This document shows, in pieces, positions 10,201-29,041 of a DNA stretch of 64,000 nt. The notes below the pieces were generated by a model, which ran no database searches, was not told the DNA's origin, and saw only the letters and a list, made by a program, of their open reading frames with translations. The position numbers were made by a program, and so were the translations under genes. This DNA comes from Candidatus Latescibacterota bacterium (GTDB lineage: Bacteria; Latescibacterota; UBA2968; UBA8231): assembly GCA_965200315.1 (NCBI GenBank), contig OZ241362.1:3456001-3520000 (forward strand), in the 5' to 3' direction. The first letter of the stretch is position 1, and each line of letters opens with the position of its first letter.

Positions 10201-11121
10201 TTGCAGCAACTGACCCAACACCTCGAACAGCGCGACACTCCTGTCGAACTCGACGCTTGGAAAAAGGCAGCCCAACAGTGGGAACGGGAAGGGATCACTA
10301 CGTGGGATTTCGGCGACTTGCCCGAACGAATAGAAGTGACCCAAGCGGGCGGGGTGCCGCTCTATGGCTGGCCCGGCCTCCGCCGCGACGAAGGCGGCGT
10401 GTCGCTGCGGCTCTACAAGAGTCGCGCCGAAGCCGAAGCCCGCTCGCGGGAGGGGTTCTTGGGCCTTTGTGCTCTCGCGCTCCGCGACGAGCTAGCGTGG
10501 CTCCGGCGCGAGCTCCAAGAGCTGGCGCAATTCAAGACGCGCTATCAAGGCAGTTCCCTAGAACTGCGCACCCAAGCATTTGAACATCTCGAGCGCTATC
10601 TCTTCCACCGCGAGCAAATTCTACCCCTGCGCCAAGAGGATTTCGACGCCGTGCTAGTGCAGGCCAAGCAGCGGATGCGCGGCTTGGCCCCGCGCTTCAT
10701 TTCTTTGGTCGACAGCTTGCTCGAAGCCCGCCGCGAAATTCGCCTCTCAGGCCGGTCCTATCGCGGGCTGGACGCGGACTTGGAGCGACTGCTGCCAGAC
10801 GACTTCCTCGCTCGCGTCCCCTTCCACCGTCTCAGCCACTTAATCCGCTACCTAAAAGCCGTTGAGGTGCGCACCGAACGCGCCGCGACCGATCCGCGCA
10901 AGGACGCGCAGAAGGCCGGGTTGATCGAGGTATACCAAAGCGAGTTGGAAAAGCTCGCTAGGGAAACCAATTCGCCCGAGCGGGAGGCCCAAATCGAGGA
11001 ATTGCGCTGGATGCTGGAGGAATATCGCGTCTCGGTCTTCGCCCAAGAGCTGGGCACCGCCCACCCGATTTCCCCCAAGCGGCTCGACAAGAAGGTTGAG
11101 CAGATTCGTCAAATCCGGTGA
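7243..11121 (+). CDS. hrpA: ATP-dependent RNA helicase HrpA
   Basis: GETGSGKSTQLP, TQPRR, DEAHER, SAT, TNIAETSLT, QREGRCGR, C-terminal WMLEEYRVSVFAQELGT. Confidence 0.96.
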   Translation: MSETPTKLHPITALKTLLPQCMLQDRVRIERRLNRRRLNSEEIERLLGQARSSARLHKRRRTNRPIPTYPPALPISDRRDEILAAIKAHPVVIVAGETGSGKSTQLPKICLEAGRGEAARIAVTQPRRVAALSIARRIAEELRVSYGRDVGCKIRFRDQTAPESYIKVMTDGMLLAETQTDPDLLEYDTIIVDEAHERSLNIDFLLGYLRLLRRKRPDLKIVITSATIDTETFSKAFDDAPVIEVSGRMFAVEVRYWPLDEILQDRGDYTYLDAAASAVDEILRTSREGDLLVFLPSERDIRETRERLEGRKLRGVEVLPLFGRLTAGEQQRVFAPRERRRVVLATNIAETSLTIPRIRYVVDTGLARLSRYNPRTHTQRLPIEPISQSSARQREGRCGRVADGVCIRLYSEQDFLSRPEYTQPEIQRANLAEVILRMINLKLGDVEAFPFIDPPAKAAIAGGFQLLSQLNALDENRALTPTGRAMARLPIDPTVSRMLLQAREEQALSEVLVIAAAISIQDPRERPLEEQDAADQMHRQFHDKNSDFLGYLNIWNAYHKQVERASQNQLRKFCKAHYLSYMRMREWRDIHAQLREALNEIRGFRFNSTPAEYDAIHRSVLTGLLSSVARQEEGNVYQATRNREAMIFPGSGLFRPNKGQKPGEGGPPDWLVAAEIVETSRLFARTVARVQPEWLAELGSHLCRVSYDQPYFNPRSGRVLVREKRTLYGLEVLSRRIPYSRINAREATDIFIREALVPGAVHTPHKFLAHNIRLCQKIETWQTRARGWADVHVEEAAARFYAQHLDDVSSLPDLNRFLKDKADDFLLMQEEDLLGTTRADFDQQAFPDALDLDGKKLALSYAYRPGQDEDGITVKVPYKLAHAVDPEVLEWLVPGLREEKITVLLRSLPKSIRKQLVPIPAKAQRIAAVLKPTHPTFLESLQDHIRQHYHIQIQASDWNADALPDHLKMRVDIQGTNEQSVAAGRDLQQLTQHLEQRDTPVELDAWKKAAQQWEREGITTWDFGDLPERIEVTQAGGVPLYGWPGLRRDEGGVSLRLYKSRAEAEARSREGFLGLCALALRDELAWLRRELQELAQFKTRYQGSSLELRTQAFEHLERYLFHREQILPLRQEDFDAVLVQAKQRMRGLAPRFISLVDSLLEARREIRLSGRSYRGLDADLERLLPDDFLARVPFHRLSHLIRYLKAVEVRTERAATDPRKDAQKAGLIEVYQSELEKLARETNSPEREAQIEELRWMLEEYRVSVFAQELGTAHPISPKRLDKKVEQIRQIR

Positions 11122-11164
11122 TCCGCGCCCTGATCTTCGATCTTTGCTTCGGCATAGTAAAGTT

Positions 11165-11439
11165 GGAAGGAATCCAGCGTGTACCAACGCCGACAGACCG
11201 CTGACATACGAACCGCTCACCAGTCAATTGGCCACGAGGAAGGGATGGGGTGCGGTGTGGCGGTGTGGCGGTGTGGCGGTGCCAGCGCGTACAGCCCGCG
11301 CCGGAGCTTGGGTGCGCGGGCGTCGCGCCCGCTGCGCAACGCGGTCGGCCGGGCACTTGCAGACGGCTGCGGCCAAGAGCAGGCCAGTTTCAAACACCGG
11401 CTCATCGGCCACGATGGCGAGCAATTGATCGAATTTCAC
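11165..11439 (-). pseudogene. AbiEi-like (type IV TA) antitoxin remnant
   Basis: Pieces across frames: MKFDQLLAIVADEPVFETGLLLA / KLRRGLYALAPPHR / PHPFLVAN*LVSGSYVSGLSAL. Interrupted by a 75-bp repeat copy, a GTGTGGCG expansion and an in-frame TGA; no cognate toxin follows. Confidence 0.6.
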
Positions 11440-11540
11440 CGCAATAAATTGCCTTTTGAGCCTGTCGCCGGAGCTTGGGTGCGCGGGCGTCGCGCCCGCT
11501 GCACAACGCGGTCGGCCGGGCACTTGCAGACGGCTGCGGC
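11299..11540. repeat. Two 75-bp direct repeats (11299-11373, 11466-11540) containing the REP-like hairpin GCGGGCGTCGCGCCCGC
   Basis: 74/75 identical; related hairpins occur at ~14009 and ~59625. Confidence 0.9.
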
Positions 11541-11571
11541 AAGAACCGATCCGCTCCATGGGAGCCGACCG

Positions 11572-13895
11572 CTATAGCGGGTTCAAACACTGCGTTGTCT
11601 CCGCCCGGTCGCCTATCTCCTGCCAATCCCACAACTGCGGTATAAATTCCACATCGGCCCAAAGCCGGGCTTGGTCGGCGTAGTGCGGGCTAGCCGGGTG
11701 GCCAGAGGCCCCCAGCGGCGCGATCCAGCGCGACCGGGTCCAGTCAGACGGGTCGAAGATATAGCGGTTGACCGAAAGGCCCGTAACTGTGAAGTCGTCG
11801 AAGGCATAGCTGCCGGCCAGAGGCGTGTCGCCATCGCCGTGGACGGGAAGCGACGGGGGGTCGAACAAGGAAGCGGCTGCGGGGAAAACCGCCGAGAGCG
11901 GATGCTGAGGCTGGATGCGGTGCAAGCGGCCCCAACGCCATTGGCCCATGTCCTTGCCGAGAGCTTCTTTGAGCGCGGCGAGCGCGCCAGTCAGGGCCTC
12001 AGTCAGGGCTTGGGACCACGTTTGGCCGGGCGGCAGCAGCGCCGTGTCGCCGCGCTCGATAGCGAGGGTTGCTTCGAGGTGTATAAGACGCCAGTGGGCG
12101 TCGCCGCCAGCCTCTGCGAGCAAGGTCAAGGCGTCGCCGCCGAACAGGTTTTGCGCAATGTGGTAGCCAAGCAGGGCGCGAGTTTGGGCATAGATCGCCG
12201 GCTGGACTTGGTCGCGGTCCATCCGGCAGTCCCATTGGCTCAGCAGGTTGAGGGCTTGGGCGCAGTCGGCGTCGGGTGGCTCGATGGCGAGCAAGGCCCG
12301 CGTAAAAACCTCGGCCGGCAGCGAGACGCGTTCGGCGTGGATGCGGCCCATAGCCTCGGGCGTGGCCGTGCCCTTTGCTAGTTCGCGGATGCGGGTCTGG
12401 ATGCGGCGGGCTCGGTAGTCCGGGCTAAAGACAAGCCCGACATAGTAGGGATAATCCGTGCCGGTCACGCGCTGGTTGCAGGTGATGGCATAGCCTGTTG
12501 CCGGGTCTATGGCTTTGGGCAACTCGGCGTGGGGGATGTAGCCCTGCCATTCGTGCTCGCCGCTCCAGCCGGGGACGGCGCACCAGCCGTTGGCGGCCTC
12601 GCGCACCGGGATCCGGCCCGCGTGTAGATAGCCGAAGCAGCCGTGGACATCGGCGACAGCGTAGTTGTTGACGCGGTCGGTCCAGCGGGCGAAGGCTTGG
12701 TGCAAGTCCGCGACCGAGCGGGCGCGCATGGCATCGCGGGCCGCATCGGCCCAAGGGGTTCCCTCGATGAGGCCGGGGTCGCTGATAGCGATGGCTTGGC
12801 CCTTGCGCGGGTCGCCAGCAATGATAGGCCCGTGGTGGGTAATGACGACCTCGGAGGTGACGGATGCCGCGCCGCGGACGTGAATTTCTTCCCGCAGGAT
12901 TTCCGCGGGTCGCCACGCGCCGCTGAATTCGTACTCCAAGCCGTCGGCCGTTTCGCGGAAGCGCTCGACGAACAAATCTTGAGTATCGGCACTGCCGTAG
13001 GTCATGCCCCAAGCCACGTATTCGTTGTGGCAAAAGTGCAAGGTGCCGGGGAGCCGGGGACCGAATAGCCGCTGACGGCGAAGTCGGGGCAGGCGAGGTG
13101 GACTTGGTAATAGACGGAAGGAGTGTCGAGGGCGCGATGCGAGTCGCCGGCCACCAGCGGCAAGCCCGAATCCGTGTACGCACCCGCGATGGACCACGCA
13201 TTGGAGCCGGGGTCGGTTTCGCGGCAGAGAGCGGCGAGGCCATCGAGAGGTTCTCCTTGGTACTCGGTGCCGGGGGGCACGGTGAGCAGGTGGCCTTGGG
13301 GATAGCCTTTGATGAGCCGAGCGAGGTTTGCGGCCACAATACTGTGGCCGGACTGCTCAGGGCCGACGGCTTGGGCCAGACGGGTGCGCCAGAGCTTGGA
13401 TTCAAAGGTGCCGAGCAGGCTATTGCGCATCTTGTACACGGCGAGGCAGTGCCAGCTTTCCCACGGCTCGGGCTGCTGGCCGAGGAGTTGGTATTCGACG
13501 GGTAGGGCCGTTGTCGTCGCCAAAAAGGCGTTGACGCCCGCGGCGTATGCGTCGAACATGGCGCGGGCTTGGGGGCTGGACGCTTCGTAGTCCAACTTAG
13601 CAGTGCGGCCCATGCCGGCGGCGCGCAGGAGGCGGTCGCGGCCCAGCCCGGCGGGGCCGGCCCATTCGGCCCAGCGGCCTAGGGCTTGGTGGCGATCGAA
13701 GTCCATCTGCCACAGGCGGTCTTGGGCGGTGGCGAAGCCTTGGGCGAAAAACAGGTCGGCTTCCGATTCAGCTTGGATATGGGGGATTCCCCAAGGGTCG
13801 CGGTGGATGGTGACGGTTTTTTCAAGGCCCGCGCAATACTGGGTGCTTTCGAGATCGGGGAGGGCCGCTTGGAGGTCTTTGGCAGTGATAGGCAT
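11572..13895 (-). pseudogene. Penicillin acylase family Ntn-hydrolase with a 1-bp frameshift near 13052 (pseudogene or sequence error)
   Basis: IHRDPWGIPHI, AQGFATAQDRLWQMD, beta-chain start GSNAW, AGDSH, then in the other frame HNEYVAWGMT..GASGHPASPHYADQ. Adding one base at ggc tcc ccg restores PG(F)PGTLHF. Confidence 0.85.
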
Positions 13896-13952
13896 GGCGT
13901 TCCTCGTGTGGGTTGGTTCAGGGTATTCTGCAAGGCAAATGCGTTTGCCGCA
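13843..13952. repeat. 110-bp direct repeat, copy 1 (5' end and leader of the acylase gene)
   Basis: 109/110 identical to 16447-16556. Confidence 0.95.
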
Positions 13953-13980
13953 AGGCACATCCGTAGCTTTGTCTCCGAGC

Positions 13981-14094
13981 CTAAGTACCCGACAGTAGGG
14001 CCGTCTCTGGGTGCGCGGGCGTCTCGCCCGCATGGCCGGGCCGAGGTCCGCACTCATAGAGGGGATACATGCACAGGAAGTGTCGCGTACTTAG
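13981..14094. mobile_element. MITE-like element with CTAAGTAC.CGACA terminal inverted repeats and 8-bp TSD CTCCGAGC; internal REP-like hairpin
   Basis: Ends CTAAGTACCCGACA / TGTCGCGTACTTAG; CTCCGAGC at 13973-13980 and 14095-14102. Confidence 0.75.
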
Positions 14095-14447
14095 CTCCGA
14101 GCCCCCGACTCTTATATGCGTTCATCATCTTGACAAAATCCAAAAAATTGGGGTTTGTCTGATACGGCTCCTTAACGTGCTGGAGGGCTACATGACCAAG
14201 ACATAGCAGGCGATCGGCCCCGTAGCCACCGCGGCCAACGACTGCGCTGCAGCAGACTTGCGACTTATTTTTACCGAATCCCGCCACAGTATGCCTCTGT
14301 ATTCGTCTCTATCGGTCTGAAAAACGGCTAGAGGGCTGTTGCGAGCCGGGCTTTAGCTTGAGCGGTCTCGCTCAGGTGCTGTGGTCGCCCGACAAACGGC
14401 TTCCGGTGCTGGAGGGTAATTGGCTATGAAATCGAGAGACATCGGCT

Positions 14448-15485
14448 ATGAAGCGTTTTTGGTCCACTTACGAGTTCACTCTCCGTCAGGAACGGCGGCG
14501 GCGAAAATTCGACCAGCGACGGCGCCATGTACAGGAACGGCAAACGGCGTTGCGGAAGCGACCTCCGAGACTCCGATCAACACGCTCTCGTCAACAAGAA
14601 TCATCGCTGCCAGCACCCGAAGCACTCAGTCTTTTCGACGAACCTGACAAGACTCTCGAGTACTGCAACACATTACGGGGGCATCTTAACCAACGGGGCA
14701 CCAAGATCTTTCTTGACCTTGGCGATGTCCAACATTTCACCAGTGATGCGCTCCTTCTGATTCGAGCAATTATAGCCTCCAGTGTCCATCACAATCAGGT
14801 CAGCGGAAATTTACCACGGGATCCAGCTATAGCCTCCGAATTCAAAGCATCTGGTTTCTTCGCCGGCTTTGCCAAGCCACCGGCTAACCTTCCTCCTGCA
14901 AAAGGACTGATATTAAAAAAATCAAGCGACAAGGTGCTAGCGGAAATGGCTGCGGAATTAGTCGACTTCGTAAAGAAACACGTACCCATCACCAAGGAAT
15001 GCGCTAATGCCTGTTCCCAGACTCTTGTCGAGGTCATGACAAACACTCACAATCACGCGGGAGGCATGAAACCTGTAGGACGTCAGAAGCGACGTTTTCC
15101 CCAAAAATGGTTCGTCAGCGTCTATTGCCGAGATCAGACTGCTTACTTCAGCTTTATAGATCTTGGTATTGGTATTCTAGAGAGCGCACCAGCAAGAAAC
15201 ATACTGCAAAGAGCTGGGGCTTCGCTTTCCTCGTATGGACGAATCAGTTTACTAGAAGACGCCTTCAAGGGGCGCATCGGATCTGCTACAGGTAAACCCG
15301 GCAGGGGACTCGGACTGCCTAGGATGAAACAGGATGCGGAGAGCGGCATGTTATCGGACCTTCAAGTATTGACATCTGACATCGTCGGATCTGTTGCTTC
15401 TCTTGACTTCAGAACAGTCGCCCATTCTTTGCGCGGCACAATGTTTCGTTGGCGCGCCCTTCACAAGGAGTCGAGCAATGATTGA
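14448..15485 (+). CDS. Anti-sigma-factor-like GHKL kinase/ATPase with N-terminal STAS-like region (CapK-like)
   Basis: IFLDLGDVQHFTSDALL (STAS-like), N-box EVMTNTHNHA, G1 FIDLGIGI, G2 GRGLGL, G3 GT. Confidence 0.75.
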   Translation: MKRFWSTYEFTLRQERRRRKFDQRRRHVQERQTALRKRPPRLRSTRSRQQESSLPAPEALSLFDEPDKTLEYCNTLRGHLNQRGTKIFLDLGDVQHFTSDALLLIRAIIASSVHHNQVSGNLPRDPAIASEFKASGFFAGFAKPPANLPPAKGLILKKSSDKVLAEMAAELVDFVKKHVPITKECANACSQTLVEVMTNTHNHAGGMKPVGRQKRRFPQKWFVSVYCRDQTAYFSFIDLGIGILESAPARNILQRAGASLSSYGRISLLEDAFKGRIGSATGKPGRGLGLPRMKQDAESGMLSDLQVLTSDIVGSVASLDFRTVAHSLRGTMFRWRALHKESSND

Positions 15486-15831
15486 AATCAATATCGCCAA
15501 AGACTTCACGACACTACCAGGTCCACGATACAAGGAACAGGGGCCTGGATCCGGCCAGCAATTCCTAGAAAAACATCTAAGGCCTGCGTTCCTGAGGGCG
15601 AAAGAGACCAAAGAGCAGGTGACCATTCAACTCGATGGCGTCAAATACGGTTATCCCACGTCGTTTCTTGAAGAAGCGTTCGGCGGACTCGCCAGAGAGT
15701 TCGGGATAGAGGAGGTTCAGAGTTTTCTACGCTTCGAATCGGCAGCTGAACCGATGCTCGATTTCGAGATTCGCCACTACATCAAGCATGCCAACGACAC
15801 GCCAGGGACAAGCCCACGACCAGCGACATGA
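15478..15831 (+). CDS. Stand-alone STAS-like protein (DUF4325-like)
   Basis: MIEINIAKDF..PGPRY..GPGSGQQF..IQLDGVKYGYPTSFLEEAFGGL; AAGGAG RBS; 8-nt overlap with the kinase gene. Confidence 0.8.
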   Translation: MIEINIAKDFTTLPGPRYKEQGPGSGQQFLEKHLRPAFLRAKETKEQVTIQLDGVKYGYPTSFLEEAFGGLAREFGIEEVQSFLRFESAAEPMLDFEIRHYIKHANDTPGTSPRPAT

Positions 15832-16385
15832 GTAGCTTCAATATCCCCGCGATCATACTCAGTGCCCTCCTCGGCGCACTCGCCATGTCATTAGTGCGTG
15901 AACCCCAACTTCCGATTTCCGGCTTGATCAGCGCGACGGCAACCTTTGCCATCGGTTGGTGGATTCACAGGGCCGTGCGGCGCAGAGGAGAGCTTGACCG
16001 AATCCCGATCGATTACTTGTCGGATCTTAATCGCCGGATCAACGAGTTGATTTCGGCATGTCTGGGCCCTGCAAATGCAGAAGGCGAATCCAAACGCTTA
16101 GTGAATCTTACGCTGCTCTCCAATGAGATTCATTGGCTCCGCATCATTGCCAATAGGGTGCAACCCAAGCTGAGAGTGCAACCTAGGCTGAATCAGTTGG
16201 GAGACGAACTTGCCTCGCATTACGTGGACTTCAAGAGGCATCTGACCGAGAGCGATTCGGTCGATCTGGTAGCGGCCTCGAACGCCAGCCACGAGATACG
16301 GATGACCGCTCTGATGGTCCAATGGCGCATCTGCCGGCATATCCTCGATCGAAAAACAGACATCGACATCTTCACATCCCTTTGA
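15828..16385 (+). CDS. Hypothetical protein with two N-terminal TM helices and a helical cytoplasmic domain
   Basis: ATGA overlap with the STAS gene; hydrophobic IPAIILSALLGALAMSLV and ISGLISATATFAIGWWI followed by a basic stop-transfer segment. Confidence 0.7.
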   Translation: MSSFNIPAIILSALLGALAMSLVREPQLPISGLISATATFAIGWWIHRAVRRRGELDRIPIDYLSDLNRRINELISACLGPANAEGESKRLVNLTLLSNEIHWLRIIANRVQPKLRVQPRLNQLGDELASHYVDFKRHLTESDSVDLVAASNASHEIRMTALMVQWRICRHILDRKTDIDIFTSL

Positions 16386-16446
16386 TGCTGAAACGCTAGC
16401 ACTCGTGTGGGTTGCGTTATTCTAGCGTCGCGGGCTAGAAAAAGGA

Positions 16447-16556
16447 GTGCTTTCGAGATCGGGGAGGGCCGCTTGGAGGTCTTTGGCAGTGATGGGCATG
16501 GCGTTCCTCGTGTGGGTTGGTTCAGGGTATTCTGCAAGGCAAATGCGTTTGCCGCA
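16447..16556. repeat. 110-bp direct repeat, copy 2
   Basis: Matches 13843-13952 with one mismatch. Confidence 0.95.
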
Positions 16557-16564
16557 GGCATACC

Positions 16565-16607
16565 TATTGAACTATTCTTTAGTTCAATATAGTTCACTTT
16601 ATAGTTC
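16565..16607. promoter_or_regulatory. Probable VapBC autoregulatory operator
   Basis: Perfect inverted repeat TATTGAACTA-N5-TAGTTCAATA plus repeated TAGTTC, just upstream of the antitoxin ATG. Confidence 0.65.
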
Positions 16608-16619
16608 GGAGTTTATAAC

Positions 16620-16865
16620 ATGAAATCAATTACCATTCACGGAATGGACGATGAAATGGACCGGCAAATTAGGGAGAAAGCCGCAGCCGAGGGCAAGAGC
16701 CTGAACAAGACCATTAAAGGGTTGCTCAAACAGGCACTGGGAGGGCGGCGTTCGCGGCGAGAAGAATTTGTCGATCTCTTTGGTTGTTGGTCGGCAGCGG
16801 ATCTGGCCGAGTTTGAACAAGCGACAAAAGACCTTCGCCAGATTGATCCCGGCGACTGGAAATGA
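16620..16865 (+). CDS. vapB: FitA/VapB-like ribbon-helix-helix antitoxin
   Basis: MKSITIHGMDDEMDRQIREKAAAEGKSLN; ATGA-coupled to a PIN gene. Confidence 0.85.
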   Translation: MKSITIHGMDDEMDRQIREKAAAEGKSLNKTIKGLLKQALGGRRSRREEFVDLFGCWSAADLAEFEQATKDLRQIDPGDWK

Positions 16866-17254
16866 AGCGCATACTTCTCGACACCAATGCCTATACCGCA
16901 TTTCTAACTGGAGACGAGCGCGTACTGAATGCGCTAACTGAGGCAGAAACAGCGTTTTTATCCGCCATTGTCATTGGAGAATTGTACGCTGGCTTTTGCG
17001 GCGGCAATCGGCTCAAGGAAAACAAGGCTCTGCTAGCGCGTTTTTTGCAAAAGTTTAATGTGCGCGTCCTTGACGTCACCGCTGAAACCGGGGAAGTCTT
17101 CGGCCAAATCAAAAACGCGCTACAAGAGGCCGGAACGCCGATCCCGCTAAATGATGTATGGCTGGCGGCACAGGCCATGGAAACCGGCTCGGTTATCGTC
17201 TCCTTCGATGCGCACTTCGATCAAGTCAGCGGACTTAGACGCTGGACGCATTAG
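16862..17254 (+). CDS. vapC: VapC PIN-domain toxin, apparently intact
   Basis: ILLDTNAY, IVIGEL, GTPIPLNDVWLAA, SFDAHF acidic tetrad. Confidence 0.92.
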   Translation: MKRILLDTNAYTAFLTGDERVLNALTEAETAFLSAIVIGELYAGFCGGNRLKENKALLARFLQKFNVRVLDVTAETGEVFGQIKNALQEAGTPIPLNDVWLAAQAMETGSVIVSFDAHFDQVSGLRRWTH

Positions 17255-25259: not shown

Positions 25260-26301
25260 GGAACCTCTGATCAAGTTAAATTTTTAAAAACCGGAAGATT
25301 TGGTTGAATTTTAGTTCTGTATCGACGAGCTAATAGTTTTCTTTCGGGGTGTATTGGTACCCTTTTTTTGTTCTAATCTGGGCTGTAGACGGATTGCGCC
25401 CTACGTCGCCGCTAATGCTCTACGTGCTAGGTATACATTGGCCAACGCAAACAAGGTGAACCCCTGGGCGGCGTTCTTGGCCAAGCCGCGATAGCGCACC
25501 TTGCTATAGCCCCATAGGTGCTTGATGATGCCAAAGGAATGTTCGACCCGGGCGCGTGTGCGGTTACTCTTTCGGTTAAACGAGCGGTCCGCACCGGTGA
25601 GTTTCCTACCGCGCGTGGCCTTGCGCAGGACGCGCCATGCAATTCCCTCAGCTTGGGCGTCCTGCTGGCGTTGGGCATCCACATAGGCTTTGTCGCCATA
25701 AATGGCCTCTTCGGCGCCATGCAAACACTCGTCCATCCTCTGCCAATCATGCACCGACGCCGAGGTCACTACGACGGGATGTACCCGTCCCTGAAGATCA
25801 CTACCCACGTGCGCTTTGAGACCCAAATGCCACGTCGTTCCCTTCTTGGTCGAACCCATCTGCGGAGCCCGGGCCTGATCCCGGTTCTGGGTCGAAGTCG
25901 GCGCCGTGAGCATGGTCGCGTCCACAATGGTACCTTCGCGCAGGAGCAAACCTCGATCCGACAAATACTGACCGATGCATTCAAACAAGCACTCCGTCAA
26001 CTGATGCCGTTCCAAAAAATGGCGAAATTTGCCGATCGTCGTCTCATCTGGAATGGCATCCAACGCCGCCCCCGCAAAGCGGCGCATCGACGCTATGTCA
26101 TACAGACTATCCTCCATCGCCGGGCCGGAAAGCCCATACCATTGTGGCATGAAATAGAGGCGCAACATCGTTTCCGCAGCAAGCGGACGACGACCCCGAC
26201 CCGGCTTGGGATAATGCCGAAGAATCGGTGGCAGAAGGGCATCCCACGGCAACAATTCATTCATCTCGCCGAGAAAGCGCTCTTGGCGCGTTGTTTTCTT
26301 T
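25260..26301 (-). mobile_element. IS5-family element, 5'-truncated at the IS1595 boundary; transposase remnant 25401-26301
   Basis: RFLGEM..PW, PDETTI..FRH, GTIVDAT, GLKAHVG, YGDKAY, RARVEH.F..IK; IR-like GGAACCTCTGATCAAG at 25260. Confidence 0.85.
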
Positions 26302-26357
26302 GGCAATTAGTATTTAAGGGCTTGACTGTCCCTTGATTCTCTAGTACTTTTCTCTGT

Positions 26358-26868
26358 ATGAACAGAGTTAGACTTGGCGATATTTGTACCGTCCGCAAGG
26401 GGGCTGCTCCGACCGCCTTTGATGGAGATATACCCTATCTGACGATGGAGTACCTTCGCGGGGAAAAAAACGAACCGCCGCTAGTCAAACCCGATTCTAA
26501 TAGCCTTCTGGCGTCCGATGGAGACATCCTACTGCTATGGGATGGGGCAAACGCTGGGGACTTTATACGAGCCAAGAGAGGCGTAGTATCTTCGACGGTT
26601 GCCCTGCTTAATCCCAATACTCAAATCGTTGATCTTGACTTTTTCTACGCAGCCTGTAAGAGAAAAAGCAACAAGAACGGGTACTACGATCCCCCACGTA
26701 CATGGGAAATCTCTTGCAACTATCCTCTTCGATCTACCCCCCCTCTCCGAACAACAAGTTATAGCGGAACTATTGGGGAAAGCCCGTCAAAGCGTTGAAT
26801 TAGCCCAGCAGCTAACCGAAAAATACCGACTACAAGAAAAAGCACTAAGGAAACGTTTGATACCATGA
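26358..26868 (+). pseudogene. Single-TRD HsdS-like (type I R-M specificity) passenger gene, frameshifted near 26660
   Basis: VRLGDICTVRKG, GDILLLWDGANAG; then in the +1 frame TGTTIPHV, LPPLSEQQVIAELL. Confidence 0.75.
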
Positions 26869-26870
26869 GA

Positions 26871-26902
26871 AAGCCCGTAGAAGGTGCGAACTTCTACGGG
26901 CT
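26871..26902. terminator. Strong hairpin after the HsdS-like passenger (terminator or regulatory stem)
   Basis: AGCCCGTAGAAG-N8-CTTCTACGGGCT perfect 12-bp stem; no long U-tract. Confidence 0.5.
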
Positions 26903-26935
26903 AAGTACTACCCCTAACCAACAGAAAGGACGACG

Positions 26936-27187
26936 ATGGCGATTGTGCCAATTACGGGGAAAAATCTCTTGCATGTACTAGCCGAGATGGGGATAGAAAA
27001 ACAATTTCAAATCTATAAGGCAGGAGAGATTCGCGTTTTGCCTGTTGAGCCGGACCCTGCTTCTCACTTTTTGCTGTCTTTCGATGAATGCCACTATTTG
27101 ATTCCTCGAAATGAGGCTCTTGTACTGGCTGATTTTTTTGCAAATTACCACCAGAACCACCCTGCTGAGGAGCAGTCATTTGATTGA
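26936..27187 (+). CDS. Small hypothetical passenger protein in the IS1595
   Basis: 83-aa ORF with GAAAGGA RBS, converging on the transposase. Confidence 0.55.
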   Translation: MAIVPITGKNLLHVLAEMGIEKQFQIYKAGEIRVLPVEPDPASHFLLSFDECHYLIPRNEALVLADFFANYHQNHPAEEQSFD

Positions 27188-27197
27188 CTCCGTATGG

Positions 27198-28070
27198 CTA
27201 CGCAAAGCAGGCCCGCAAGAAACCGTTGAAGGCGTCGGCGTCTTTGCGGTGGTTGTATTTCCAGACCGCTTCTGCTACGAACAAGGGCGACCAACCTTTC
27301 GTGTACTTATGATGCGAGCCGTACCAAGCGCGTTTGAGCAACGACCAAAAGCCTTCAATGGTATTGGTGTGTAGGGTCTTGTTGCTGGCGTCAACGTATT
27401 CCTCGGTGCGGTGGTTGACGGTGCGGTGCGGCATCAGCTTGTGAGCGTTGAAATAAACCGTGTACTCGTCCGTAATCAACGACGATTCTTCTACCTCGAC
27501 AGACTGCGCGATAAAGTCCAAGACGGTCGCGGCCTTAGTGTCGTCTGGTACAGCGGCTTTGACGCGCCCCCCGCGCTGGACGGCTCCAACGACGGGCGTT
27601 TTGCCAGTACCGCGCCCGCGCTTGTTGTTGTCGTTCTTGTAGCGAGGCTTACCGCCTACATACGTTTCGTCGGCCTCGATGATGCCGCGCAGTAGGGCCT
27701 TTTCGTCCGATGCCATAGCGGCGCGAATCCGCTGTTGCATGAACCACGCGCTTTTCTGGTTGAGTTCCAGATCGCGGGCTAGCTGGCAACTCGACAAGCT
27801 CTTTTTGGCGTTGGCCATTAGCGAGATGGCCAAGAACCACTTTTGCAGCGGGATTTTGGTCCCCTGAAAAATGGTTTGGGACAAGACATTAAAACTAGAA
27901 TGGCAGCCGTGGCAGTTCCAGCGGCCTACACGCTCATTCTCCGCTTTGCGGGCAACATCACAATCGCCGCACAGCGGGCAATAGGGGTCATTATTCCAGC
28001 GGATTTGCTCTAGATGAGCGATGCAAGCGGCTTGGTCGGGGTACTGATTGAAGATGCTTATTAGGTTCAT
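27198..28070 (-). CDS. IS1595-family transposase
   Basis: Zn ribbon CPLC..CHGC, IEADETYVGG, LITDEY, HTNTIEGFWSLLKR; AAAGGAGG RBS before the ATG at 28070. Confidence 0.93.
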   Translation of the reverse strand: MNLISIFNQYPDQAACIAHLEQIRWNNDPYCPLCGDCDVARKAENERVGRWNCHGCHSSFNVLSQTIFQGTKIPLQKWFLAISLMANAKKSLSSCQLARDLELNQKSAWFMQQRIRAAMASDEKALLRGIIEADETYVGGKPRYKNDNNKRGRGTGKTPVVGAVQRGGRVKAAVPDDTKAATVLDFIAQSVEVEESSLITDEYTVYFNAHKLMPHRTVNHRTEEYVDASNKTLHTNTIEGFWSLLKRAWYGSHHKYTKGWSPLFVAEAVWKYNHRKDADAFNGFLRACFA

Positions 28071-28144
28071 TTTCGTACCTCCTTTAACTACTATAAAGAT
28101 AGGAAAATAAAGAAAATATGGCAAGCCCTTAAATACTAATTGCC

Positions 28145-29041
28145 ATATCTCTTTTATCTAACCAAACGTGGGTCAACACCTCATAATCTCTCGCATGCCG
28201 GCGAAAATGCGGCCGCCATACGGCGGCCGGACTGCTCATCAACCCCGCCAAGGGGCGCTCGACGCCCCACCGGCGTGGTAACACCTCAAAGCCGCCGCCT
28301 TGTTTGGCGACGACTTCCCAGTCTATTTTGTGCGTCTTTTTTTGGTTGGCCCCCACGTTGGGATGGCCGCGCCTTGGTAGCCGCCATCCGCCCATAGCTT
28401 CCGTAAGCGGGCCACGCCAGCGGCTCCTAAGCAGGTCAACACCTGCTTGAGGCCGTCGCGATCATCCACGGCGGCGGCCGTGACCACCCCCTGTCGAAGC
28501 AAGCCCAACGTATCCACCAACAGAGGCCGTTTGCGTCCCTTGATCTTTTTACCGGCTTCATACCCGGTTGTTCTACCATGCGTTGCGGTCTTAATCGTCT
28601 GCCTATCGACGATGCCAGCCGACGGCAGCCCAGCCCGTCCGTTCCGGCGACGCTCCCTTTGGGTACGCTGATCCAGCACCGGCGGCCAGACCCCTTGCAG
28701 GCTCCAACGACGAAAGTAATCATACACCGTTTGCCACGGCCCAAAACAACCAGGCAACAAAGCCCAAGGACACCCCGTCTTGTTCAAATACAAAAGGCCG
28801 TTGACGATTTGGCGGCGATCCCGCGGGGGCCGGCCCGGACCGTGAAGACGCCAGCGCGGCACCGGCCGCAACGGTGCGATCCGCCGCCATTGGGCATCGG
28901 TTCGATCGGTGGCATATGGCATAGGCGGCGTACTCATCACACAAGCCTTTCTGTTCAGATTTTGTGGTGAACACCTGAATAGGGCTCGATGAGTACGCCG
29001 GTTCAAATAGCGACTACATTAAGGGTTTGCAGACGCCTTCT
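28145..29041 (-). mobile_element. IS5-family (IS1031/IS427-like) element with a frameshifted, 3'-truncated transposase
   Basis: YATDRTDAQW, GCPWALLP..FGPWQTVYDYFRRW, GKKIKGRKR, WADGGY, then FEVLPRRWGVER..RDYE in another frame. Confidence 0.82.

Follow-up and report, generated by a model that had tools for sequence, protein, structure and literature searches.

A mobile kinase–STAS cassette that may gate a membrane protein in place of a nuclease toxin

What does a kinase–STAS pair control when the gene that follows it encodes an unannotated membrane protein? The question is raised by three overlapping plus-strand ORFs spanning 14448–16385 of the window, the whole stretch of 64,000 nucleotides from a Candidatus Latescibacterota bacterium that was analysed here. 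The genes encode a putative kinase (K), a small STAS protein (S) and a predicted membrane protein (M) (Table 1). An initial annotation had read the trio as a candidate phosphorylation-gated membrane-effector defence system. The reading preferred here, with a probability of roughly 0.55, is that the cassette is a VapKSC-type, kinase-gated toxin–antitoxin or abortive-infection module in which a membrane protein has replaced the nuclease toxin.

Table 1. Features of the cassette and its borders, in window positions.
Feature	Position	Strand	Basis or remarks
Direct repeat copy 1, left border of the cassette	13843..13952		110 nt, 99% identical to copy 2
Leader 5′ of the K gene, presumed promoter/regulatory	13958..14447	+	No long ORF
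Gene 1 (K), 345 aa	14448..15485	+	ORF; basic helix, STAS and SpoIIAB-type GHKL
K residues 8–37, long basic helix	14469..14558	+	AF2 helix
K residues 49–144, STAS domain	14592..14879	+	VIA-align of the AF2 model
K residues 152–342, GHKL ATPase/kinase domain of anti-sigma-factor kinase type	14901..15473	+	VIA-align; boxes intact
Gene 2 (S), 117 aa from ATG	15478..15831	+	ORF; single-domain STAS, short C-terminal helix
Thr61-Ser62 codons of S, presumed phospho-acceptor, start of helix 2	15658..15663	+	ACG TCG
Gene 3 (M), 185 aa, presumed gated effector	15828..16385	+	ORF
M residues 5–51, helical hairpin	15840..15980	+	AF2 helices 5–24 and 30–51
M residues 55–174, up-down four-helix bundle, predicted cytosolic	15990..16349	+	AF2, block pLDDT 82–96
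Direct repeat copy 2, right border of the cassette	16447..16556		Repeat search and alignment

Direct reading of the sequence confirms the coupling of the three genes that had been described, with an 8-nt overlap between K and S, ATGATTGA, and an ATGA overlap between S and M. The cassette lies in an islet of low GC content (0.48–0.55 over about 13750–17250, against 0.63–0.68 on either flank), again as first described. It is also intact, as claimed: all three ORFs are complete and every catalytic and interface residue is present. K, S and M are all real genes under constraint. The 110-nt direct repeat that borders the cassette occurs in two copies only in the whole 5.36-Mb genome, and its left copy includes the start codon and 5′ end of a minus-strand penicillin-amidase gene. 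Six related loci (L001–L005 and L013) have the left copy only. The leader recurs at the same position in L001, L003, L004, L005 and L013, with 77–81% identity over about 360–540 nt, and scans of leader and cassette for sigma-70-like promoters and for Rfam families gave no match. Three metatranscriptome libraries of one study, in which DNA carry-over is possible, each contain one contig that covers the whole cassette; the contigs end at the 110-nt repeat, as they do in a DNA run, and they demonstrate neither transcript ends nor, strictly, transcription.

Downstream of M lie the second repeat copy and then an independent VapB/PIN pair, and there is no immune operon. The PIN gene (16862–17254) is partnered with a FitA/VapB-like antitoxin, not with S. 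No prophage or obvious defence island was seen around the cassette in the window, and neither a sigma factor nor a PP2C phosphatase gene is present in the cassette or its flanks. The statement that most neighbouring conflict loci are broken is poorly checkable. One HsdS fragment was seen in the window, amid three transposase genes at 25.4–29.0 kb; the VapB/PIN pair is intact, and the split gene beside the cassette is the penicillin amidase rather than a conflict gene.

K consists of a basic helix, a STAS domain and a GHKL domain, and neither the AF2 model (pLDDT 84, pTM 0.77) nor its comparison by VIA-align reveals a further domain. Residues 1–50 contain 19 K/R against 4 D/E, a basic composition preserved across 29 homologues, and the helix is possibly a nucleic-acid-binding element. 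In VIA-align, the STAS domain matches an anti-sigma-factor antagonist, 4qtp_A (Z 9.3, rmsd 2.3, 91 residues aligned), together with 1sbo_A (Z 9.1) and SpoIIAA 1tid_B (Z 7.8). The GHKL domain matches SpoIIAB 1l0o_A (Z 13.6, rmsd 2.7, 137 of 141 residues aligned), RsbW 6m36_A (Z 10.6) and UsfX 8ih8_C (Z 10.2). Foldseek likewise returned 11 matches to K at E ≤ 0.001, with SpoIIAB 1th8_A at the top (E 7.6e-6). None of the nucleotide-binding boxes (N, G1, G2 and G3) varies across 29 aligned homologues; they comprise E195/N199/H203/A204 in the N box, D238/G240/G242 in the G1 box and G285-R-G-x-G-L290 in the G2 box, with G330-T331 and W335 further on. The STAS-like N-terminus and the full set of GHKL boxes reported for gene 1 are thereby upheld, and clusters near gene 1 in the ESM Atlas lead toward names containing HATPase_c or STAS.

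Sequence searches returned little for K. It has no Pfam hit above cut-off, HATPase_c and HATPase_c_2 included, and none of its 79 homologues has a recorded Pfam domain. Sub-threshold HATPase_c_2 or HATPase_c scores (E 5e-5 to 1e-2) were obtained for 31 of 63 viral K relatives, none of which reaches the cut-off (best score 23.6 bits against 27.4). PDB sequence searches with genes 1 and 2 and their profiles found only AgrC (G2 box, E 2) and PsaE (E ~1); no CapS or VapS chain was found with the S and K profiles in the structure library up to 2026-04-08. An hhalign comparison of the K profile with an RsbW-like protein of the same genome (L101) gave a probability of 0.4%, which is no evidence against the fold of K because a single-sequence template is weak. 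Because the Pfam, PDB-profile and L101 searches are empty, the assignment rests on predicted fold and motifs, by which K is an active-looking Ser/Thr kinase of the SpoIIAB/RsbW type.

Residues 25–92 of S correspond to PF14213 (DUF4325, STAS-like; 42.4 bits against a cut-off of 23, 5.9e-11). As this is the sole Pfam match, S has no DNA-binding domain, in keeping with its first description as a bare STAS protein. S is a single-copy gene in the genome, and its mean column identity over 14 loci is 78%. Thr61 and Ser62 are both invariant over these 14 loci, and Ser62 is present in 66 of 67 distinct S relatives. S is predicted to serve as the kinase substrate and to bind M.

The third protein belongs to no named family. 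M has 44 homologues and, by profile search, 89 cluster representatives, and it matches no family in Pfam (E ≤ 1), PHROG or PADLOC. None of its 30 nearest ESM Atlas clusters is named. Its first predicted helix is clearly hydrophobic (Kyte-Doolittle 2.04) and the second borderline (1.40), so the initial description of M as a two-helix membrane protein fits the model, with this qualification on the second helix. The second helix closes with a G43-W44 motif, of which 44 of 58 viral relatives have the Gly and 47 the Trp; a basic stretch follows (5 K/R in residues 48–62). M is predicted to be anchored in the inner membrane by this N-terminal hairpin. The bundle that follows yields nothing by Foldseek at E ≤ 0.001 and, by VIA-align, generic bundles only (TLNRD1 6xz3_A, Z 14.2), such matches being uninformative for helical models. 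The fold and family searches disclosed no feature that would mark a pore. M was also considered as a SLATT two-helix effector, and this was rejected: the NCBIfam SLATT_4 match (E 0.14) scores 12 bits against a cut-off of 55 and covers residues 4–40 only.

Modelling of S with M, which had been suggested as a check, gave a prediction that passes its controls. For S with residues 46–185 of M, the ipSAE is 0.87, against 0.00 for the best of three controls; of 157 solved complexes 116 attain the ipSAE mark applied, and of 215 mismatched pairs 2 do so. Three runs have at least 92% of contacts in common, with a partner pLDDT of at least 74. The predicted STAS-binding face of M is formed by bundle helices 2 and 3 (residues 87–105 and 129–142), including K136 and T140. 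In the contacts with the lowest error, Thr61 of S lies against K136, R137, L139 and T140 of M, and Ser62 against T140. All 23 close relatives and 48 of the 58 viral relatives have T140, and the contact residues are the most conserved positions of both families. S is therefore predicted to bind the cytosolic bundle of M through its Thr61/Ser62 face, which the model supports but does not show. The predicted interface also places the basic residues K136 and R137 next to the phospho-site, and for this reason phosphorylation could strengthen S–M binding instead of breaking it. The opposite direction, in which phosphorylated S would release M, is the one we infer.

The genomic record of the family offers a further view of how the three proteins may depend on each other. 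Co-occurrence of gene 3 with the STAS gene had been named as a way to examine the proposal, and in a search seeded on M, S adjoins M in all 14 genome loci, which are distributed over two phyla. Intact K-S-M triples make up seven of the 14. In four others (L002, L007, L008 and L011) K is lost or broken with S and M intact, and intact M without S occurs in none of the 14. M is truncated in L003, K and M are both broken in L012, and L014 holds remnants only. Such an asymmetry, with K lost and S retained, would be expected were S the neutraliser of M and K no more than the trigger; the loss of K at four loci could also come from plain decay alone. Decay of this kind among relatives, together with the split amidase gene next door, gives some support to the view that the cassette in the present genome is an inert passenger that was passed down as part of the islet and is heading for decay. 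That view is countered by three intact ORFs with all catalytic and interface residues in place and by the metatranscriptome contigs that span the cassette, carry-over of DNA being possible there, and it is the least probable of all the readings weighed here.

The trio is far from confined to bacterial chromosomes. IMG/VR contains 195 viral stretches that encode an S relative. Among the best 80 of these, a K-like gene lies directly upstream of S in 72, a gene of the M superfamily directly downstream in 71, and the full trio is present in 68. None of 76 third genes of viral relatives encodes a PIN domain. Marinobacter phage AS1 carries the trio. The M family of the window is linked to most viral third genes, AS1-like ones included, only by several profile iterations, and hhalign found no similarity between the gene 3 profile and AS1 gp39. 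In controls for these iterations, none of 340 shuffled and none of 68 reversed sequences matched. Six of 719 other ORFs did; L048, L073, L096, L098 and L099 start at the 3′ end of the STAS gene, which is the third-gene position, and the sixth is probably L100. Ten viral third genes were not joined to M (L021, L025–L029, L032, L036, L048 and L073, the last two as first picked). At E ≤ 0.001, PADLOC v2.0.0 matches none of 105 viral K and third-gene proteins, and two trio proteins are entered in PHROGs as ‘unknown function’. Six plasmid examples were also found, in which the trio adjoins MazEF, MNT/HepT and RelE-type pairs; tblastn with gene 1 against plasmids gave no match, and the plasmid kinases were reached via the STAS gene. 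K, S and M thereby travel together between phyla, phages and plasmids, and the trio is common in phages.

Of the 26 viral loci sampled, 11 have the trio directly behind a co-oriented CI-like repressor gene; in others it is found between terminase, portal or tail genes, in moron positions. Such placements in lysogeny operons and as morons, and the predicted nature of M as a small inner-membrane protein, would suit non-lethal superinfection exclusion, in which M blocks DNA entry or a membrane step of the phage at the inner membrane and K and S tune it. This is distinctly unlikely: the trio is also carried on plasmids beside classical toxin–antitoxin pairs and in chromosomes without a prophage, as in the present window, an exclusion protein has no evident use for a kinase-controlled inhibitor, and the asymmetric decay points to a harmful M.

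A classical anti-sigma switch, in which K inhibits a sigma factor, S acts as its antagonist and M is an accessory, would make the cassette a transcription regulator. Its attraction lies in the solved folds closest to K, since SpoIIAB, RsbW and UsfX work with STAS antagonists, and in a sigma-factor-like gene downstream of the trio in the AS1-like group (L046). That neighbour occurs in only one of the 26 sampled loci, however, and the window cassette has no sigma factor or PP2C gene in or beside it. Mobility between phyla, phages and plasmids is also more in keeping with a self-contained module than with a regulator tied to one host. This reading is very improbable.

In switches of the stressosome type, and in further partner switches, STAS proteins serve as relays. 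By this precedent M could be an input rather than an output: a membrane-anchored sensor or scaffold to which S is tethered and which responds to events at the envelope, for instance the entry of phage DNA, the action of a holin or membrane stress. Release of S would then control K, and K would act on another host or phage protein. M has no recognisable effector fold, and the predicted S–M interface would fit such an arrangement equally well. Yet K has no domain beyond the three described, no further conserved output gene accompanies the three-gene module in the 68 of the best 80 viral loci or in the plasmid examples, and the survival of intact S and M in the four loci without K is odd if K carries the output. 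A sensory role for M is, on balance, unlikely.

The preferred reading, a kinase-gated toxin–antitoxin or abortive-infection module, suggests the following course of events. In the resting cell, S would sit on M and keep it harmless. A stress or infection signal, which by analogy with CapK and VapK could be single-stranded nucleic acid, would activate K, perhaps being read by the basic helix and the STAS–GHKL interface. K would then phosphorylate S at Ser62 or Thr61, S would leave M, and free M might perturb the membrane by oligomerisation, leak or depolarisation, so that growth of the infected or plasmid-free cell stops. The analysis shows the domain folds, the linkage of the genes, their conservation, their broad distribution in phages and plasmids, and a predicted S–M interface around the phospho-site; that K acts on S, that M is toxic, what the signal would be and that phages are held back are steps which we infer. 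The phosphorylation-gated membrane-effector reading proposed at the outset is supported by the results above; on that reading, gene 3 may be toxic or pore-forming, phosphorylation may release it, and the system may defend against phage. More broadly, and tentatively, at somewhat short of an even chance, K-S-M may be a widespread module that confers immunity by itself and resides in temperate phages, on plasmids and in chromosomal islets, often at a rexAB-like site behind the prophage repressor. In it, a nucleic-acid-sensing kinase of the SpoIIAB type would phosphorylate a STAS ‘antitoxin’ and so unleash a new family of membrane-disrupting four-helix bundles.

The cassette suggests that the kinase–STAS switch gates a different kind of output, an unannotated membrane protein family. 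If the immunity-module reading is true, the trio would represent a new abortive-infection or defence family, and M a second, much commoner effector class for this switch. Confirmation would give annotators a defence or addiction module to mark on plasmids and in the immunity regions of prophages, would establish M as a new small membrane effector, and would provide a clean model for asking how a STAS domain lets go of a partner once it is phosphorylated. The predicted interface names precise positions for mutants, Thr61/Ser62 of S against K136/T140 of M.

Among described systems, several share parts of this architecture. The lambda cI-rexA-rexB operon is an abortive-infection operon whose genes lie behind the CI repressor and whose last product is a small inner-membrane protein; neither a kinase nor a STAS protein is known as part of Rex. 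The viral trios resemble it in being co-oriented behind a CI-type repressor at the 11 sampled loci and in ending with a small, predicted inner-membrane protein, whereas no kinship of sequence or fold is seen, M matching no PHROG. SpoIIAB–SpoIIAA and RsbW–RsbV provide the best structural matches to the kinase and STAS domains of K, and these switches share with K-S the logic of a kinase and a phosphorylatable STAS antagonist. K-S-M differs from them in having no sigma factor or PP2C in its operon, in the fusion of a STAS domain to the kinase and in being a mobile module.

The triple as a whole matches no named system. In PADLOC-DB v2.0.0, genes 1 and 3 have no match and gene 2 matches only IetA (E 0.032), and no description of K-S-M was found in the literature, which agrees with the initial statement that its third component is undescribed. 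Papers on a jumbo phage, by Kaur et al. and on MtvS were considered and set aside, as they mention STAS in unrelated contexts only. A relative of the arrangement is the PIN.4 group of VapC proteins, ‘transcriptionally coupled to DUF4325 genes’ (Matelska et al., NAR 2017, PMC5499597). It resembles K-S-M in coupling a DUF4325 STAS gene to a putative toxin gene, and unlike the M-bearing cassette it is the PIN, or VapKSC-type, version (PMC5499597).

Kinase–STAS control of immune operons and of one nuclease toxin was first shown in 2026 (Chambers et al., EMBO J 2026, PMC13373217), and the CapK/CapS regulators and the VapC-gating variant named in the initial annotation are both described there. CapK, like K, combines a STAS domain with a GHKL kinase, and its STAS partner CapS has a conserved helix-2 Ser, at which CapK phosphorylates it on a stress signal, ssDNA (PMC13373217). 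In contrast to K, with its single basic helix, CapK carries an N-terminal HTH, and CapS represses transcription through a C-terminal winged-HTH where S consists of STAS only (PMC13373217). CapK/CapS also lie upstream of an immune operon, whereas K-S is followed only by gene 3 (PMC13373217).

VapKSC is the closest parallel, as judged from gene layout, domains and published description. As that paper describes it, VapS binds VapC with the conserved Ser48 buried in the interface, the S48E substitution abolishes both binding and antitoxin activity, and the system protects against one phage (PMC13373217). The gene order is that of K-S-M: a kinase with both STAS and GHKL domains comes first, and the next gene encodes a STAS protein of only about 115 aa, which carries a short helix at its C-terminus and a Ser/Thr that is absolutely conserved (PMC13373217). 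For S and M, burial of the phospho-site in the interface with the third protein is a prediction of the complex model. The word ‘transmembrane’ is absent from the main text of PMC13373217. K has an extra Arg-rich N-terminal helix compared with VapK, and the third protein is a PIN nuclease in VapKSC (PMC13373217) where, in K-S-M, it is a predicted membrane-anchored four-helix bundle.

The cassette consists of three genes, K (kinase), S (STAS protein) and M (membrane protein), which overlap by 8 nt and 4 nt as the initial annotation had read them. They lie in the lower-GC stretch that it had also described (0.48-0.55 over ~13750-17250, against 0.63-0.68 outside). This islet, with a penicillin-amidase gene on one side and an XdhC-type gene on the other, houses in addition an intact FitA/VapB-like and PIN pair, PIN being the nuclease domain of VapC-type toxins. 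On one metatranscriptome contig (run X4), position 16865 is joined to 17254 through 276 letters of different sequence; that strain variant has something else in place of the PIN gene. The sole broken conflict locus noticed in the window is a restriction specificity fragment. Arg/Ala-rich peptide motifs recur several times, three ORFs being examples, with copies between the HrpA-like helicase and amidase genes (11096-11577) and again immediately left of the cassette leader (~13990-14060); they have the look of a short GC-rich repeat element, dispersed or in tandem.

Coordinates of the cassette and of neighbouring features in the window
Feature	Position	Strand	Description
Gene 1 (K)	14448-15485	+	ORF, 345 aa
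K basic helix	14469-14558	+	
Gene 2 (S)	15478-15831	+	ORF, 117 aa counted from its ATG
Gene 3 (M)	15828-16385	+	ORF, 185 aa
M Thr140	16245-16247		codon
Direct repeat	13843-13952 and 16447-16556		110 nt, 99% identical; brackets cassette
FitA/VapB-like RHH antitoxin and PIN toxin	16620-17254		81 aa and 130 aa; intact pair
Penicillin-amidase	11572-13197 and 13002-14057	-	two overlapping ORFs
Examples of ORFs with Arg/Ala-rich motifs	11096-11428, 11179-11577, 13002-14057		
Type I restriction specificity subunit fragment	26358-26798		146 aa; between transposase genes
Three transposase genes (DDE_Tnp_1, IS1595-type, IS4/5-type)	25401-29006		around HsdS-type fragment

K has no significant match in Pfam, NCBIfam or PADLOC and none among PDB sequences. 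Its AF2 model, built from 29 sequences (pLDDT 84, pTM 0.77), begins with a long helix spanning residues 8-37; an alpha/beta domain covers 49-144 and a further domain 152-342. SpoIIAB (1th8_A) tops the Foldseek list (E 7.6e-6; 11 matches at E<=0.001). In VIA-align comparisons, residues 152-342 resemble SpoIIAB 1l0o_A (Z 13.6, rmsd 2.7, 137 aligned), RsbW 6m36_A (Z 10.6) and UsfX 8ih8_C (Z 10.2), and residues 49-144 resemble the STAS antagonist 4qtp_A (Z 9.3, rmsd 2.3, 91 aligned), 1sbo_A (Z 9.1) and SpoIIAA 1tid_B (Z 7.8). The GHKL boxes are all invariant among 79 homologues. The STAS-like N-terminus and complete set of boxes first ascribed to K are both borne out. Matches to HATPase_c_2 or HATPase_c fall in the same region of 31 of 63 distinct viral relatives, always below the cut-off, and some of the ESM Atlas look-alikes are clusters that bear the name histidine-kinase-like ATPase or STAS. 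Residues 1-50 hold 19 K/R against 4 D/E, and the Arg-rich helix is conserved in composition, not in sequence. From these fold matches, invariant boxes, sub-threshold matches and charges, K is thus made up of a basic helix, then a STAS domain, then a kinase of the anti-sigma type whose active site is intact.

S matches DUF4325 (STAS-like) and no other domain, in agreement with its initial description as a bare STAS protein. It is the most conserved member of the trio, with a mean column identity of 78% over the 14 genome loci found by a scan seeded on M, K reaching 54% and M 53%. Neither Thr61 nor Ser62 varies across these loci, and Ser62 is kept in 66 of 67 distinct S sequences, viral relatives included; the adjacent FLEEAFG motif is invariant by construction, since it served to find the viral relatives.

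M has 44 homologues at E<=0.01, and its profile finds 89 cluster representatives among 1.84 billion proteins, with no family match in Pfam, PHROGs or PADLOC. SLATT was considered and rejected, SLATT_4 matching at E 0.14 over the first hydrophobic helix only. The AF2 model (pLDDT 76.8) has helices at 5-24 and 30-51, followed by a confident up-down four-helix bundle (55-174) for which fold searches return generic bundles only. The first helix has a Kyte-Doolittle value of 2.04 and the second a borderline 1.40; five K/R after the second helix place the bundle on the cytoplasmic side. Within the close family Thr140 never varies, and 54 of 58 viral relatives have Thr or Ser there.

Complex prediction paired S (14-sequence alignment) with M residues 46-185 (23-sequence alignment) and gave an ipSAE of 0.87 (0.87, 0.87, 0.88), the best of three controls reaching 0.00. 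Among solved complexes 116 of 157 reach that mark, as do 2 of 215 mismatched pairs; these calibration counts are a rough guide only, since the alignments of S and M were custom-made. Runs share at least 92% of contacts, with partner pLDDT of at least 74. This supports, rather than shows, binding of S to M. The predicted interface joins S 17, 56-62, 65 and 90-100 to M 87-105 and 129-142. Its best-defined contacts are those of Thr61 with K136, R137, L139 and T140 and of Ser62 with T140, so the presumed phospho-site of S would meet the most conserved motif of M. Thr140 might itself be phosphorylated.

The M-seeded scan of a genome collection found, by record title, eight of its 14 loci in Latescibacterota MAGs and six in Vicinamibacterales MAGs. 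S adjoins M in all 14, and intact M without S occurs in none of them. The triple is intact in seven (L001, L004, L005, L006, L009, L010, L013). Four others have intact S and M but a missing or damaged K: its last 51 residues remain in L002 and its last 29 in L011, none remain in L007, and L008 has an internal deletion. In the syntenic MAG locus L002 (5467-5655), a clean deletion runs from the conserved leader into K and the VapB/PIN pair is absent; it is a natural kinase-less allele, comparable with the intact one of the window. The remaining loci have a truncated M (L003), frameshifted K and M (L012) or remnants only (L014). Within the phylum, M is carried by 10 of 168 genomes, namely 8 of 31 in the window's own genus and two of the three in another genus, and was found in none of 13 other families. 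The cassette belongs to the accessory genome and is transferable as a unit.

The 110-nt repeat occurs in two copies only in the 5.36-Mb genome; within it lie the amidase gene's start codon, its first ~17 codons and ~60 nt of upstream sequence. Only the left copy is present in six syntenic relatives (L001-L005, L013), so the right copy is a duplication private to the window's genome; it may have arisen by Campbell-type insertion or be a tandem-duplication remnant. In the same six relatives the amidase is a single ORF of 767-825 aa, and here its halves cover Pfam model positions 1-224 and 219-673. RNA-library contigs of related strains have 1-2-nt insertions at 13051/13052 and 13225/13226, and the DNA run that may be its source agrees with the window. 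The split is a frameshift specific to this strain or else an error in the consensus. In three metatranscriptome libraries of one study, single contigs span the cassette (13923-16493, 13923-16556, 14216-16865). Contig ends coincide with the repeat, where short-read contigs break, as they do in the DNA run. These contigs are at most a weak hint of expression, DNA carry-over being another possible source.

An IMG/VR scan with the S alignment found 195 stretches with a relative, of which the best 80, all chosen via S, were analysed. In 72 of these 80, S is immediately preceded by a K-like gene (E<1e-3 with an HMM of the K alignment). In 76, a gene follows within a few bases 3' of S, and none of the 76 contains a PIN domain or scores above cut-off for any Pfam family. 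Iterated profile searches from the M alignment, which define the M superfamily, joined 58 of 68 distinct third-gene proteins to M. The controls gave no match among 340 shuffled or 68 reversed sequences and six among 719 other ORFs; five of these six start at the STAS gene's 3' end, the expected spot of a mis-picked third gene. An M-superfamily gene directly follows S in 71 of the best 80 and the full trio is present in 68, both tallies counting L096, L098, L099 and L100. Members have an N-terminal hydrophobic helix ending in G-W, a basic juxtamembrane stretch and the motif [FL]-[KR]-x-x-[ILV]-T; T140 is conserved in 48 of 58 viral relatives and in all 23 close ones.

In Marinobacter phage AS1, gp41-gp40-gp39 form a trio beside the Cro/CI region (gp41 against the K profile, hhalign probability 97%). 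Plasmid trios occur in Leptospira, Vibrio (two), Acinetobacter (two; in one, K is interrupted by an IS) and Novosphingobium, and the third genes of the annotated examples share the M design. A published table of a Francisella prophage lists, one after the other, a protein of 293 aa, a DUF4325 protein and a TM protein (PMC7924643). In PHROGs, K is phrog_3364 and S phrog_5816, both of 'unknown function'. S and AS1 gp40 align to positions 340-439 only of the 441 of phrog_5816, which suggests that in some phages the kinase and the STAS protein are fused into a single chain. Of 26 sampled viral loci, 11 have a co-oriented CI-like repressor gene immediately upstream, and other sampled trios sit between terminase, portal or tail genes.

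PADLOC v2.0.0 gave no match to the trio, and full-text searches of non-subscription journals gave the paper on CapK/CapS, regulators of immune operons, and its preprint as sole relevant items. The word 'transmembrane' is absent from the main text of that paper (PMC13373217), whose appendices and datasets EV1/EV2 might mention variants with a membrane protein. The closest precedent is VapK-VapS-VapC (VapKSC), in which VapK is a kinase with STAS and GHKL domains and the antitoxin VapS is a STAS protein that buries its Ser48 against VapC. With the substitution S48E, VapS neither binds VapC nor rescues. A role for ssDNA as trigger is proposed, and protection against one phage is described (PMC13373217). 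By this analogy we propose that S neutralises M, that K would act as a kinase on Ser62 or Thr61 of S and so free M, and that freed M would damage the membrane, presumably in defence and on a signal received through K. The proposal fits the linkage asymmetry and the predicted interface. What the analysis itself shows is the folds, the linkage, the spread and the predicted interface, whereas the activity of K on S, the direction of the switch, toxicity of M, the signal and a defence role are inferred. The switch may also run the other way: given the basic residues at the predicted interface, phosphorylation might strengthen S-M binding. Four rival readings stand beside the proposal: M as a sensor, a non-lethal exclusion device, a true anti-sigma switch and an inert remnant. 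K-S-M differs from VapKSC in its toxin and from CapK/CapS in lacking both DNA-binding domains. The Arg-rich helix of K is without counterpart in the published VapK description, and CapK has an HTH domain at that position (PMC13373217). By analogy, then, K-S-M would work like VapKSC and CapK/CapS while belonging to neither.
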